Shown here: one piece after another, positions 37,923 to 45,429 of the stretch
Layout of the letters: each line of letters starts with the position of its first letter
Numbering within the stretch: the first letter of the stretch is position 1
NCBI GenBank assembly: GCA_020137815.1
Contig: CM035352.1
Span: forward strand, 3,596,001 to 3,660,000
DNA length: 64,000 nt
Source: Hormiphora californensis
Lineage: Eukaryota; Animalia; Ctenophora
Reading direction: 5' to 3'
Program-made: the position numbers and the translations under genes
The notes under the pieces: model-generated
What the model saw: only the letters and a program-made list of their open reading frames with translations
Databases searched by the model: none
What the model was told of the DNA's origin: nothing

Positions 37923-39654
37923 AGATCTGCTATGCAGTTCAGACGACCTCTGCAGCTTTCAGACATGATTATGATTTTTGCGGCTGAGCGCGCACGCCAC
38001 ACGGCTCATTAGTAGGTAACTTGGCGCGCCTTCTTATTCTTCCCGCCAAACTGCATATGCAATTGGTATCGAAGACACCTCACACTCTCACATCGCGGCC
38101 TTCGTTTGGTGCGCTTTGCGCGCCGGCAAGGGAGGGGTAACTTCGTTACCAAACTATGCAACAATTCCTCCTCTCCGAGTCCGATAAATTAAGAAAAAGG
38201 CCTTGTCAGTTGTTTTACTTTTACTTACAGTTACCATACAGTCAGTCGCCGTAGAAACGATTTAATTAGCTAATTAAGCCTGATTACCGTTTCAGGTGGA
38301 AGAACTTTGTTTTGGTTGGCCGGGATCCCCGTGTACAAGAATCGTAGCAGCAGAGACGGTAATTGGAGTGGAGTAACGAGTGTTCGTTCCATGTCCGGTA
38401 GTGGCAACACAGCACACTGTGGGGAGGATACTATATTAGTGAACACAGAACAGGTGAGTTATAAACGTTAATTTATAAATAGATTGTGTGTGGGGGATGG
38501 GGTTTGAAGCTCATATCTGATATCGAAGACGAGCACAAACAACAAACATGTTGTTTATTCTCGTTTTGTTATGTGTTATACCTTGAAGGATTGAATCCCC
38601 TGCTATAACGGTGCTGGTAGTCCGATTCCATGGTTACATTCGACTCTGGGGTGTCTGTCACAAATCCTGGAAATATGGGGTCATGTTAAAGTGATGAGGT
38701 GCACGAAAACGAAATTTGGAATAATATCTAAATAAAAAAATAAATTGTGTATAACATTCCTTGGTGTCCAATTAGAATTTTGGTGAAAAGATGACGTTGT
38801 TGTTGTGGTGCTGCGATTCGGACTATGCAGTGGTCCTATGTGAGAGCAGGGTTAAATCCCCCGGACCCGGATCCTGTTGGATCTGAGGGCCCGGAGGGCC
38901 TGCGGAGTTAAGGTAGGTAGAACAATGAACATAGTGGTAAGTTGAACAATGTACATATAATGGGTTAAAGTAAGAGAAAAATATATAAGGGGAAGTAAAG
39001 CTCATGGTGACGGAGCAAAAGACCTCCTAAACTATCTGGAAAGAAGCCCAACCGTCTGGAATGGAGCCTAAGAAGGGGGGGGGGGCGTGAATTTAATATC
39101 CATGTCCTAAATATACACGCCCGACTTAAATGTCCCTGGGACATTAAAGGACATTGAATTAAACATGCATTTTCTATTATTAAACTAAAATAGTGTTTTC
39201 AACACAAAATGAAAACTCTATCTCTCTCTCTCTCTCTCTCTCTCTCTCTCTCTCTCTCTCTCTCTCTCTCTCTCTCTCTCTCTTTCTCTCTCTCTCTCTC
39301 TCTCTCTCTCTCTCTCTCTTTGATTTTTGAGAAGATATGTGCGGTTTTATGTCAAGTCACACCTGGGCTTAGACTTGACGGTGACTCTTTTGTCGAATGC
39401 AGTTGATTCGACACTTTTCGCTACGTTTGCTCTTAAATTATCAAGCTTGAAAGAAGAGAATTATATTATATTTCTCGAAGAATTATATTATATTTCTCGA
39501 CTGATGCTCTTCTGTTCGCGCACCCACAGGGTGCTCCCCTCACACCTACGCGGACAAGCAATTGCCTTGACGTCACGATAGCACGGTATATAATAGTCTT
39601 TGGTACAAGGCGTATCTTTGCTACTTAAATTTCTCCGATAATTTTGCGTCTCAA

Positions 39655-42600
39655 ATGGTTCTCTTTTATCCTGCACTTTTTATTGTTGTCACCAGGGTAC
39701 TTTCTGGTGATGATCAGTGTCCAATATCAGTGGAGAATGGGTTTCTGGTGAGGTGTTGTGCATTCAACGAATCATCTTTTGCCCTTGGAGGCATCCCCAT
39801 GACATGTCTAAACTCAAGCGCTGTGTATTACAAGGTTTTTAAATACAACCGGTTCTCAAGAACCATGAAAGCCTATATAAATACCTTGTGCCCTTACGAT
39901 TCCATTGAGTATCAGGCTTGTGGAAATGTAGATTTTAAGACTTGGTCTGAGTCACAAGCCGCTCCAACAAAGCTCTTCCAAACGTCCCCCGTGTGCGGGA
40001 AGTTGTGTTATGAACGTGATATGGGCATGTACGGGTTTCACACGGCATCACAGACCTGCCCCAGTGCTCAAACCAGTATATTGTACAAAATACGTACTAA
40101 TGAGGGTGAGAGCTTGGAGATACGGATAAAGGAGGGAGGAATCTGTGACGGAGCTTGTGACGAAGTGGAGTTAGTGTCACCCATGGGTGACACAAATCCA
40201 GACGATTATTTAAATTGTGTAGATGAAAGTTCTTGTGATGGGTATAACTACGGTTTTGTAGCTAAGCAAGGCACCCTGTATGTCTTTGCCCCCTTCAATA
40301 GTGACTTGAGCTACAACTCTCCAACCTTCCAAAATGATGATATTAAAGCACTAGTAGCTAAGTATGGGTCATGTGTTAAGAAACAATATAACTTTCCCCT
40401 ATACAACGCCTCCCGTTGCTTCATACCTTACATAAATAAACCAGACACTTATAGGCCGGACTTACATACCACTGACATGATGCGTTATTGTGATGACGGC
40501 TATGATCAGACTAACTGTTCAGATCCAGCAAAGGTCGCCGGTTCATGCCTTATTGGCGGATATCTCTCTACAGTTTCCATTTACATTGTCTGCCATGAGA
40601 AGGGGAAATTGTGTGATGACGACAGTCACAAAATATGTCCCACATTGAACCGGTATTGTACCATTCATAAGCATCGGTTGTGTAATGGACAAAATGACTG
40701 TGCTATGGGGGCGGATGAACGGCAGGAGACTTGTTTAAAGCTCACCCAACGATCGTGTGTTCGCAGTTTCAGTCAAAATCAGGGGCTACTTAAGATTCCA
40801 GTGGACTGGGTCCAAGATGGAGTGGTAGACTGTCTTGATGGGGAAGATGAAGAGAACAACTGGGAAACATGCGGTAAAGGCATCAGAAAGACAATTAATT
40901 ATTCAAAAGATAAATGTAATAATGTCTTCCTTTGCAAACATAATGAGTCACAATTTTTAGAGGCCACCCTGTTATGCTCCTTCACCTCAAACTGTGACGA
41001 AGGAGTCTGTCTCATTGCTAAAAGTAGACCGCAAATAACCAGAAAATTGTTAGAAGTGAGAACGGGAGTAGGAAAAACCCTCAGGAGTGCAATTTGTGTG
41101 GGAGGACTTGAACATTTTCTCTTGCTAGCGGGTCAACTTTGTCGATCGGAAACTTTCAGCCATTCGTTTCATGAGTTCTTTGGGAAGAATTTTACAACTG
41201 ACTTAGTTGTTCCAACAAAGAAGCGTGATTGTAGGTACTTTTACGGGGAAGCATATGTGTTTTACAGCTGTTCAGGACTTTGCTACAACGCGCCGTGTCC
41301 CTTGAAAAGACCCGTCCTTCATAACACTTGTAGCAACCTCAGAAACACCTTTTATTCTCTCAACTTACAGCTTGGCTCAGTTACCATTCTACAAAAGTCT
41401 CGCGAACGGTTCCACAATAACTTCTTCGTTTGTAAAAACACTGACTGCATCCAGTTCGAGAAAGTGTGTGATCTTGTTGATGACTGTCTGGATAGATCCG
41501 ACGAAGAAGAATGTATAAATAGTTTTCAGTGCACCGATAAATCTGGTTTCCTCGCGTTGAGCCAGAAGTGCGATGGAAAGGTTGACTGCAAGGACCTATC
41601 TGATGAATGCAATGATAGTTGTAGAAGAAAAGCCGTAAAACACGAGGCTATTTTAGGAATTGCTTTTTGCATGGGAATTGCAGGAATAATCTTTGCAGTT
41701 GGTAGCATAATCAAAGGCTTTAAGAACATGCAGAAAGCAGAAAAGAGTGGCGAGTTCATCAATCAAAGCATGGTCTTGATGATTTCTTTAGGAGATCTAC
41801 TGACATCTGCGTATCTCCTAACTCTCACGTCAGTTCACTGGATCCACGGTTTGGGATTTTGTGAATATCAGTTTGAATGGATAAGTGGAGCCCCTTGTAC
41901 TGTAATTGGGGTTTTGAATAGCGTTGGATCATCTACTTCTTCCCTTGTGATGGCCTTGGTTAGCTGCTTCCGACTCCGTGGTACCGTAATGGCCCTTCGA
42001 TACCGCCGTTCAGATGAGGTTACCCGGAAGCTAAAGGTTAAAGTAGGCTTACTACTCGGAGGAGTCGTACTAATATCTCTGACAGCGTCGGTTATCCCAT
42101 TGATAGATGCTCTTGATGATTGGTTTGTCAATGGACTTGTATTTGATAAGGGTATCAAACTGTTTCTTGGAGTGATTGGCAAAAGTCAACTGCTGAAGAT
42201 TGTGCGGGGTTACCTTGGAAGCCACGAAACCCGACAAAGTCAGTCAGGCAACGCTGTGTCTTGGAACACATTCCAAGAAATGATTTCTGAGATGTTTTCC
42301 CAGGATTATGATCCGGTCAGGGGCAAAAAACTGTCCTTTTACGGTAACGACCCAGTGTGCATGTTTAAGGCATTTGTCCTTGTGAATGATCCCCAGGTAA
42401 TTTACGTTTGGGCTTTCCATATCTTGTATTTTCTCTGCTTTGTATGCGTTACGGTATGCCACGTGGTGATAGCAGTTCTCGCCAACAAGTCCCTTATCAA
42501 AAGTACCACAAGGTCTAATTCGCTCAGCCACAAAGTCTCTTTGATCTGCCTAACTGATTGCTGTTGCTGGGTTCCCTTCCTAATATGCTGTGCCCTCCAT

Positions 42601-43872: not shown

Positions 43873-45429
43873 GAAGATTGTGTAGTCGGTACATGCTGGT
43901 GTGAACTTATAATGTGTGGCACGCAGTGACTTTATTGTAATGGAGATGATGAGCTCATTGAGCACTGCAGGCGTACAGGGTAGACAGTACAAGGCTAGCT
44001 GCAAACTACAAGCTGCATTCAAGACTGTGTTGTGTTTTACGTGATTGCATTTTACAGTAAACTCTTGATTTGCTGGGTTCAATTTCTTGTCTCTCAACCT
44101 GTCAGGGCTTTCCCAAATTTTAAAATCATCATCATAATATACAAATTGTTTACCAAACTCTTGTCTTCCATGATCCTGTCTCACCGCGGGTTTGAACAAA
44201 TCAAGCCAACTGGTTCCCCCGTTCACAAGTCCGGTAAATCAAGGGTTTACTGCATACCCTTGATTTACCGGATGACGTCTCTATGTTGTGCTTGAAATTC
44301 AGAGTTAACTAGGAACGTGCATGCTCGTGCAAGCTTCAAACACAAGTTAGAAGCATAGGGCCTTCACTAAAGTGTTCCTTGGATCAATAAATAAATAAAA
44401 GAAGCAAGATGGTGAAGGTTGTTATAAAATGATAATGATAGTGATTTGTGACTGAGGGTCTGTTTAACGTACTATCAAAACTACCTGTATACGGGGTGTT
44501 CAAGAGATCGGTGCAACGTACTGCAGAATATAGCGATAAAACAAAAACTAATGGCAGAGGGACCGTAACTGATATTTACAGACATATACTGACTGATAGC
44601 CCAGTGAGCATAGAGGTGAGAAACATGAGGAATGAGAAATGCCCTGTAAACGAGGGTGTTAAGGATGAAGCCACTAGGCCAGAGAGCCGTATTATTGATT
44701 ATGCATAATTGATTACACCCAATTATGAGGACAATTGATTGTGAGGACGGTGTTAATTTGGCAGGCTATTGCTATTGAAGATTTATATTTTGATGAGTAC
44801 AACAAGGTTCATGCTTCTAACTTGTGTTTGAAGCTTGCACGTGCATGCGCTTTCCTAGTTAACTCTGAATTTTAAACGCATCATAGAGACGTCATCTTTT
44901 CACCAAAATTCTAATTGGACACCAAGGAATGTTATACACAATTTATTTAGATGTTATTCCAAATTTCGTTTTCGTGCACCTCTCACTTTAATGACTTCAG
45001 CAAGCAAATAAATCTACAAGCGCCGCCCAGCAAATCGCGGTAATATCGTCCTAAGAATCTTAGGACAGTATTACCGCGATTATCAGTCATTTATCGTCCT
45101 AAGATACGTGACTGATAACTGAAAAAGTACTTGATTTGTTCTCTAGAGAGGTCTGAAATGGCCTTTAGAGGTCTAGCCTCGCACTTGCCCCGCCAGCATC
45201 GATCTACTAGCACCCGGGGGACTGCCATAACATGTAAATTTGTAGCAGACAAATTAGCATGCTTGATGCCTGATATTCACATAAATCAACCTCTCTAAAC
45301 GGGTGAATCATCATTTCTCTACTTCTTGCTTGACCCTGAACAAAATAAATTCGGCCCCTTTCTGTTTTGAACTCTATTTGCTGTTTTTACCGAAAATTTT
45401 TCGCAACTTGTCCGCCCTTATCCCCCGCC

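Follow-up and report, generated by a model that had tools for sequence, protein, structure and literature searches.

An intact receptor gene stands inside a dispersed MITE in the window, by which the whole 64-kb stretch of DNA analysed is meant. The 5.47-kb segment that holds the gene was probably brought there by the machinery of a LINE: in one event, TPRT would have carried a whole intronless LDLa-GPCR together with promoter-like upstream DNA, reversed relative to the tail of a retroposon-like repeat. The MITE is likely the landing site only. The case looks like a single event with net relocation, a possible route for such genes and not an expansion.

The outer element and the duplication inside it comprise the following features:

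38686..38689, no strand: left TTAA target site (from the sequence)
38690..38797, plus strand: Kolobok-type MITE, outer left-arm piece with the AG terminus (arm match, depth and contigs)
38790..38797, plus strand: left copy of the 8-bp duplication GATGACGT (sequence comparison)
44271..44278, plus strand: right copy of the 8-bp duplication GATGACGT (sequence comparison)
44279..44987, plus strand: remainder of the Kolobok-type MITE, namely inner left arm, spacer and right arm with the CT terminus (inner-arm match and depth)
44988..44991, no strand: right TTAA target site (contig loose ends beyond it)

The earlier note had described TTAA-flanked inverted termini at 38690 and 44987 and a left arm broken in two, and both descriptions hold. 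The ends are AG..CT, and the TTAA duplication together with 5'-RR..YY-3' termini and TIRs is of Kolobok type. Aligned to the right arm, the outer piece (38690-38797) has 98 identities over 99 bases and 2 gaps, of which one is a 1-nt insertion at base 6 of the left TIR; the inner piece (44279-44356) has 71 over 78. A simple inversion was ruled out, being incompatible with the observed order of the MITE halves.

The copy state of each part was read from public contigs. None of the 13 runs listed is an RNA run, and they have no bearing on expression. Runs X1 and X2 belong to sample S1, a near letter-for-letter match to the window and possibly its source, so they are not independent; X3 is a second sample with an identical left-junction contig, and X8 is organism B. 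The outer left arm of the MITE has high depth in all four runs compared, and both arms on the 44279-44987 side stand at about 30-300 times the depth of unique DNA. After 44991, loose ends occur in at least 17, at least 24, at least 16 and at least 5 contigs of the four runs (agreement 0.40-0.57). Past 38797, the MITE sequence continues in at least 10 (X1), at least 9 (X2) and at least 10 (X8) public contigs; the matches listed include none from X3. The element with TTAA flanks and AG..CT ends is a MITE with dispersed copies, in which GATGACGT normally stands uninterrupted. Because public contigs show it unbroken at this motif, the 5.47-kb segment is the later arrival, as had been proposed. Unbroken copies of the element exist, but the contig joints show that the unbroken family mostly omits about 44388-44810, so that the 0.8-kb form is a long variant of a mostly shorter family. 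The outer element resembles the Kolobok non-autonomous elements and T2-MITEs described in the available text of PMC9587614 and PMC6004289 (TTAA duplication, RR..YY ends, TIRs) in its TTAA, AG..CT ends, TIRs and dispersed copies. It differs from them in being here a target rather than a demonstrated carrier, with no transposase linked to it (PMC9587614, PMC6004289).

The exact 8-bp direct repeat said to bound the segment is present at 38790 and 44271. In the window, GATGACGT occurs on the plus strand at these two positions only and on the minus strand once, in the right MITE arm. Two nucleotides at the end of the left copy (GT) also fit the (CAA)n tail, which leaves a net duplication of 4-8 bp; in the right copy, the opening GA doubles as the last 2 nt of the terminal hairpin. 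Read on the tail strand, the 8-bp duplication has A as its first base and shares 2 nt with the tail. In the available text of PMC6007223, (CAA)n-tailed LINEs and SINEs have duplications that start with A and overlap the tail by 1-2 nt. The segment is like these RTE-related elements in its microsatellite tail, A-start duplication and 3' junction overlap, and unlike them in having no T-run, an RTE-clade signature, about 10 nt upstream of the duplication, as read from the sequence of 44279-44293 (PMC6007223).

The left end of the segment is made of these features:

38796..38806, minus strand: (CAA)n tail of a retroposon-like repeat (sequence and flanks of X3 contigs)
38798..39075, minus strand: 3' end, truncated on its 5' side, of a SINE/LINE-like repeat with very high copy number (depth, contig joins and fold)
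39075..39165, no strand: G11 run and a second, lower-copy repeat (X1 depth and sequence)

The repeat at 38798-39075 has an exchangeable tail at about 38798-38831, followed by a structured body (predicted fold of 38796-38920, z -4.0). Its summed depth in X1 reaches 388,000, against 82 for unique DNA; it is high in all four runs, and the tailed repeat is found in both organisms sampled. The body takes other tails at 38832, and the family extends beyond 39075/77, each in all four runs. At least five X3 contigs carry different flanks before 38796 (agreement 0.56), ending in extra tail units, and at least two join the same tail to a different body at 38830; among the matches listed, variable flanks at the (CAA)n tail appear in one of the four runs (X3). 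The left-end repeat is likely a retroposon, SINE or LINE. It runs antisense to the receptor, back to back with the gene, and its tail at the boundary is short (11 nt). The insert does lack poly(A), as had been noted, but its start, TGTTGTTGT, is a (CAA)n tail in reverse reading. The suggestion of a tail-less mobile cassette of its own kind is not supported, given that a high-copy repeat carrying a simple-repeat tail forms the left end.

An Rfam search over 38500-39700 gave a single chance-level match only; the repeat copy lacks its 5' part, where a Pol III SINE would have a tRNA-, 5S- or 7SL-derived head. Neither the tail, the repeat body nor the hairpin has a second copy elsewhere within the 64-kb window. 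Scans of viral and metagenome contigs with the tail motif, and of genome and viral contigs with the repeat body, yielded no flanking DNA. The reading of 38989-39071 as the end of a plus-strand LINE ORF was rejected on account of upstream in-frame stops and the variable end at 38796. The second repeat has a depth of about 8,000-13,000 in X1 over 39088-39151; the G11 run was dropped as a cap signature, G runs being present in other copies of this repeat as well.

The gene itself comprises the following features:

39216..39319, plus strand: (CT)52 microsatellite (sequence)
39568..39593, plus strand: promoter-like motifs, TGACGTCA at 39568 and TATATAA at 39587 (sequence)
39655..43872, plus strand: uninterrupted ORF of an LDLa-containing, probably rhodopsin-like receptor, 1405 aa (Pfam, homologs and tree)
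42807..43833, plus strand: tandem array of 12-bp units that encodes PEAT-type repeats over about 350 aa (sequence and comparison with the sister protein)

Beyond the left repeat, the gene has about 580 bp of upstream DNA. The AG just after (CT)52 is a candidate splice acceptor, and TGACGTCA and TATATAA are what we take to be a putative CRE and TATA. The whole 1405-aa ORF is free of interruption, in agreement with the earlier reading. Pfam finds LDLa in it (PF00057, E 2e-9, 2 stretches), besides LDLR-family matches; the receptor itself has no 7tm_1 match in Pfam, most homologs carry PF00001, and 5 hydrophobic segments rise over the threshold after residue 660. The 145 homologs are all ctenophore where the species is named. 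The receptor falls in a Pleurobrachia-type clade as the sister of one Pleurobrachia bachei protein, P0121 (support 100/99, 91% identity), and P. bachei has many close paralogs of it. The PEAT-repeat array is far longer in the receptor than in P0121. A Bolinopsis homolog (37%) is called GRL101-like by its source, and matches to LH, FSH and relaxin receptors are weak (E 0.002-0.003). In the available text of PMC4079206, GRL101 and type C LGR have LDLa repeats ahead of a rhodopsin-like membrane part. The receptor shares the LDLa repeats and probably this order, and differs in its long PEAT-repeat tail, its Pleurobrachia-type clade and the lack of leucine-rich repeats, no LRR family being matched at E <= 0.01 in Pfam (PMC4079206). 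None of 40 candidate stretches in metagenome contigs was confirmed as the receptor. No AATAAA occurs in 43870-44270, and the tail lies upstream and antisense rather than on the same strand at the gene's 3' end, which is not the pattern of a processed retrogene.

Two features occupy the right end:

44055..44252, no strand: 198-bp small MITE-like element with CAGT..ACTG ends, preceded by TA and followed by CA (inverted ends and contig span)
44230..44272, no strand: perfect 17-bp hairpin (sequence and fold)

The small MITE, presumably Tc1/mariner-like, has 22-bp inverted ends that match at 19 of 22 positions (the best among 60 shuffles reached 17), and contig 2 of X1 extends exactly over 44055-44252. 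Contigs break at 44067/44055 and at 44252. The perfect 17-bp-stem hairpin previously reported for the segment end is indeed there; perfect hairpins of at least 15 bp occur at about 10 places in the 64-kb window. The right arm of the segment-end hairpin (44256-44272) repeats the small MITE's inner right TIR exactly in inverted orientation, and on this sequence match the hairpin is likely a fold-back scar, a fit to the snap-back idea already raised for this junction. Short inverted duplications formed via fold-back are known junction scars, according to the available text of PMC11724301.

In the proposed mechanism, a LINE endonuclease would nick the arm of the MITE behind GATGACGT, leaving a GT end to pair with the (CAA)n tail. 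Reverse transcription would then pass through about 280 nt of repeat and onward over 5.2 kb of gene DNA. The template may tentatively be sought in an antisense transcript that read through a donor locus with the repeat upstream of the gene; genomic DNA invaded by the cDNA seems a somewhat less probable template, and a sense RNA copied from a second nick (twin priming) a more doubtful one still. The far end would fold back, copy 17 nt and join the target via the 2-nt GA overlap, and the donor copy would have been lost or be absent in the sampled animals. The gene is reversed with respect to the tail and therefore its own upstream DNA would be kept, unlike in an ordinary retrocopy. In favor of TPRT, the segment is bounded on its left by the tail of a 5'-truncated, high-copy repeat whose body has exchangeable tails. 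Against it, the right end of the segment lies about 4 nt outside the end of the 198-bp CAGT..ACTG MITE, which TPRT does not predict; the 5.5-kb antisense RNA is unobserved; and no partner LINE with the same 3' stem was found. The LINE elsewhere in the window has EN and RT reading frames, a frame-broken ORF2 and AACAACA-type terminal repeats at 14426-14434, and the tail motif is the only feature it has in common with the left-end repeat; an Atlas search typed it as an RT protein and gave no clade.

As far as the available text of the sources goes, mammals have cargo antisense to a LINE within one duplication, attributed to twin priming (PMC13174262), and in SVA a SINE at the RNA 3' end increased mobilisation about 25-fold (PMC3287187). 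The segment is like the primate antisense mRNA/LINE-1 chimeras and the SVA 5'/3' transductions in combining one short duplication, a retroposon 3' end and host cargo; in those cases the cargo can be antisense and a 3' SINE can drive mobilisation (PMC13174262, PMC3287187). It is unlike them in its (CAA)n tail rather than poly(A), in its ctenophore host and in its cargo, a 4.2-kb ORF that is complete and preceded by about 580 bp of DNA beyond the repeat (PMC13174262, PMC3287187). An intact gene moved whole and antisense with its upstream region is not among the primate cases described in the parts of these papers that were available (PMC13174262, PMC3287187).

The main rival, unlikely but the strongest of the alternatives, is a move or duplication at the DNA level only, in which microhomology joining and fold-back synthesis fitted a broken or excised stretch of the genome into a staggered break in the MITE arm. 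The 2-nt overlaps at both junctions and the fold-back-like hairpin suit it, as does the transfer of a microsatellite and promoter-like DNA along with the gene. Judged by depth, the sampled contigs show no donor or sister copy of the segment; therefore a copy mechanism needs an extra loss, which cut-and-move repair does not. On the other hand, the exact tail boundary would be left to chance, and this chance is <0.1% because only about 8 (CAA)3-type runs occur in the 64 kb; the clean 4-8 bp duplication beginning with A would also need explaining.

Improbable, by comparison, is a two-step history in which a retroposon entered the MITE and made the duplication, and a later break was repaired from a repeat upstream of the receptor. 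The repeat is hugely abundant, so ectopic templates exist, and at least one X3 contig has the MITE arm joined at 38794 to the same tail in opposite orientation (depth 221), a hint that the tail family targets the motif independently. Yet the second event would have to stop exactly at the edge of the duplication and leave no 5' repeat remnant.

Slightly less probable again is that the segment belongs to a family of mobile cassettes that carry receptors and either have an end defined by the hairpin or are Helentron-like. Parts of 44024-44269 are common to other loci (depth 1.6-3.2x in X1 and 3-7.5x in X2), and the many close P. bachei paralogs would agree with a family; but the common part is accounted for by the 198-bp MITE, and the gene-proximal parts are at single-locus depth (80.6 over 43860-44023 in X1 vs 71.5 in the flank, i.e. 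one contig's worth). Helitron and Helentron capture is not known to leave a target duplication and inserts between A and T or between T and T, unlike the segment, which is flanked by a 4-8 bp duplication of MITE sequence; to our knowledge, rolling-circle elements leave no duplication of this kind.

Very improbable is the Pack-type capture in which the Kolobok-type ends took the gene, spread it and drove receptor expansion. Pack-type DNA transposons (Pack-MULE etc.) hold a host gene between TIRs, as is the case here, and both ends are TTAA-flanked in an abundant, dispersed family. The cargo, however, has an insertion signature of its own (duplication and tail), and dispersed cargo-bearing copies were not seen (by contig depth). 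The left-junction contig of X3 (depth 272) and the cargo contigs are at single-locus level in two samples, contig depth being a weak measure; the left TIR has its 1-nt insertion, and P. bachei has a single sister protein. On grounds of depth, the TIR insertion and the single sister, the 6.3-kb composite is not supported as the possible route of receptor expansion once put forward. Its future mobilisation in trans is conceivable and may occur; there is no sign of past mobilisation.

An assembly artefact, with pieces misjoined via repeats, is scarcely credible: although no contig among the matches listed bridges either junction with at least 31 letters on each side, and the tandem duplication of the window may itself be a haplotype artefact, a misjoin is not expected to yield an exact 8-bp duplication and collinear MITE halves, and the second sample has the identical left-junction contig, the best among the matches listed (X3 record 17, 46 + 24 letters, 0 differences).

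No second cargo-bearing MITE copy was seen in the contigs of the sampled runs (by depth, a weak measure), and P. bachei has the single sister at 91%; the net effect therefore looks like relocation. From the sequence, the insertion site looks young and the gene older: a single mismatch separates the outer arms over 99 bases, the receptor and its P. bachei sister show 9% protein divergence, and in the adjoining DNA organism B stands at a synonymous divergence of about 0.31-0.38. Between the inner arms of the MITE, 7 of 78 bases differ, and a greater age of the site could be hidden by gene conversion between the arms. Organism B (X8) has zero cover over 43860-44023, 44106-44269 and 44434-44761, where neutral DNA is expected to fall below the 85% cut, and this absence was left out of account for that reason. 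The small matching shares of the organism B runs (0.09-0.11) were likewise set aside as evidence.

Retrocopies usually lose promoters. If TPRT is the true course, a whole receptor gene lacking introns, carried in antisense orientation to a retroposon tail, would keep its upstream DNA, a testable route for the spread of single-exon receptor families in an early-branching animal lineage. It is a doubtful further step that tailed retroposons lying upstream and reversed would act as handles by which LINE enzymes copy an intronless receptor with its promoter, the copies being born functional, and that this, repeated, would drive in a general way the multiplication and dispersal of ctenophore LDLa-GPCRs, perhaps also of the many nested intronic genes. 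According to the available text of PMC8527503, TEs flank 1109 of the 2357 nested intronic genes of a related comb jelly. No literature on transposon mobilisation of ctenophore receptors was found in a search covering few subscription journals and no supplements. Elsewhere in the window, 4635-9925 holds a near-identical 2-kb tandem duplication, possibly a haplotype artefact.

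The earlier note placed the MITE arms, the hairpin, the 8-bp repeat and the open reading frame (ORF) of 1405 aa correctly. The outer element, set between TTAA sites at 38686-38689 and 44988-44991, is an ordinary dispersed MITE. A single mismatch (98 of 99 bases identical) and 2 gaps separate its outer pair of arms, and its inner pair agrees at 71 of 78; PMC9587614 and PMC6004289 define Kolobok by TTAA and RR..YY ends. Beyond the window, the analysis drew on protein searches and on four of the 13 listed public runs, whose contigs were compared over two stretches: X1 and X2 (a single sample, possibly the source of the window), X3 (another sample from that organism) and X8 (a related organism, B). 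Summed contig depth differs from true copy number and is used for large contrasts only. In the run contigs the arms are some 30-300 times as deep as unique DNA, and other copies end their alignment directly after the TTAA at 44991, with unlike flanks, in 17, 24, 16 and 5 contigs of the four runs. MITE copies unbroken beyond 38797 were found in X1, X2 and X8 (10, 9 and 10 contigs, among the matches listed). Consequently, the 5.47-kb segment (38798-44270) entered a pre-existing MITE, as the earlier note proposed. Immediately left of the MITE, an open 158-bp stretch (38296-38453, +) runs from an AG acceptor to a GTGAGT donor, and the whole structure may be nested in a host-gene intron on the same strand.

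The left end is something other than unique cassette DNA: 38798-39075 is a very high-depth repeat in all four runs, its summed depth in X1 reaching 388,000 vs 82 at 39168-39212; the structure first described is real, and its reading was partly wrong. Five X3 contigs carry different flanks before 38796 and additional tail units. In all four runs the family extends beyond 39075/77 and alternative 3' ends attach to the same repeat body at 38832. In each of the two organisms this body (38832-39077) carries two or more distinct 3' tails, in the manner of SINE families that exchange tails derived from LINEs. On the minus strand the left end reads as a 5'-truncated, structured retroposon 3' end (fold z -4.0) with a (CAA)n tail at 38796-38806. 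The tail family is a putative retroposon and may fall into a known clade of LINEs or SINEs. Read on the tail strand, the duplication has A as its first base and shares 2 nt with the tail, as PMC6007223 describes for LINEs and SINEs with (CAA)n tails. The RTE-type T-run upstream of the duplication is absent from the insertion site sequence. In one X3 contig (38794/38829, depth 221) the MITE arm is joined at 38794 to the retroposon tail running the opposite way; this may be a further, independent hit on the same MITE motif.

The outer arms differ at only 1/99. Unless they were homogenised, the site therefore appears far younger than either the split from organism B or the divergence of the receptor protein from P0121 of Pleurobrachia bachei (9%). 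An intronless sulfotransferase-family gene (PF17784; 45430-46185, +), 440 bp right of the MITE, is conserved in organism B: 21 of 23 among the differences listed are synonymous, and the synonymous divergence over 45430-45692 is about 0.31-0.38 per site. In X1, a single contig covers 43860-44023, about as deep as the flank (80.6 vs 71.5). The X3 left-junction contig (depth 272) is close to the single-locus values of that run; at 43942-44023 X3 is deeper (858), and additional alleles or copies may therefore exist in that sample. No second cargo-bearing unit or donor copy was seen in the contigs of the four runs, and the net effect looks like relocation.

As far as its sequence goes, the insert works like a retroposon-mediated transduction into the MITE. 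Insertion of the segment by target-primed reverse transcription is rather probable, because of the tail boundary and the duplication; such tail runs number 8 in 64 kb, and the chance of a random break at one is <0.1%. The template would be an antisense read-through RNA, genomic DNA invaded by cDNA, or a sense RNA through twin priming. The first two are slightly favoured over twin priming, since upstream DNA was retained. Primate precedents exist both for cargo antisense to LINE-1 (PMC13174262) and for transduction boosted by a SINE (PMC3287187); for ctenophores, no report of such mobilisation was found in the literature searched.

The right end contains a further element:

44055-44252, small MITE-like element, ends TA/CAGT..ACTG/CA, 22-bp inverted ends

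Its ends match at 19/22, vs 17 for the best of 60 shuffles, and one X1 contig covers exactly this interval. It looks like a small MITE, presumably Tc1/mariner-like. The right arm of the hairpin is an exact inverted copy of its inner right end, while its own two ends differ at 3/22; the arm is therefore likely a young fold-back scar, its end sharing 2 nt (GA) with the target. Inverted duplications this short are a known feature of repaired breaks (PMC11724301). Perfect hairpins of at least 15 bp are common in the window (about 10 places). One low-depth X3 contig (44062-44371; 75) links the receptor 3' flank to the MITE spacer without hairpin and right duplication, perhaps a deletion allele or another locus. 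Repair of DNA only would better account for the missing donor but leaves the tail boundary unexplained, and is unlikely. It is doubtful that paralog flanks repeat the pattern. A two-step route is improbable, a cassette family slightly more so, and spread driven by Kolobok very improbable. An assembly artefact is hardly credible. By the 31-letter rule (31 letters each side), no contig among those listed bridges a junction.

The receptor (39655-43872, +) matches LDLa repeats in Pfam, with no LRR or 7tm_1 match. Its closest homologs among the best 120 of 145 are P. bachei models (70-78%), with Bolinopsis and Mnemiopsis at 32-37%; among shorter proteins a search yielded 40 matches, P0121 (91%) being the best. 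In a tree of 30 rows picked from the homolog matches it is sister to P0121 (100/99), nested in a larger paralog clade. Both proteins share identical last residues, and the PEAT array is far longer in the window copy: there a 12-bp unit repeated about 85 times (42807-43833) encodes a PEAT-rich tail of 350 aa, against just a few units in the sister protein. Several paralogs bear short arrays of their own. Upstream, TGACGTCA (39568) and TATATAA (39587) look like a putative promoter. No AATAAA occurs from the stop codon to the right junction.

Elsewhere in the window, a long LINE (14426-21570, -) has two upstream ORFs (609 and 335 aa), an ORF2 whose EN and RT frames are broken by a frameshift, and an (AAC)n tail adjoining a 76-bp tandem duplication; it shares the tail motif of the receptor-side repeat, with no clearly shared 3' stem. 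A TIR element (21571-22485) adjoins its 5' side. Tail to tail with it lies the 3' part of a related LINE ORF2 (12604-13755, +), ending in three 10-bp units and (CA)69. A near-identical 2-kb tandem duplication (4635-9925; 4829-6626 vs 8128-9925, 99.8%; 4635-4835 equal to 6628-6828), which may be two haplotypes assembled in tandem, harbours a 1.3-kb palindromic element (6823-8134), which splits its second unit at TTAA; the 200-bp piece presumably resembles an RTE 3' end. A short ORF (28687-29301, +) matches 7tm_1 weakly, and 60721-61776 (-) is an ORF for a papain-family protease.
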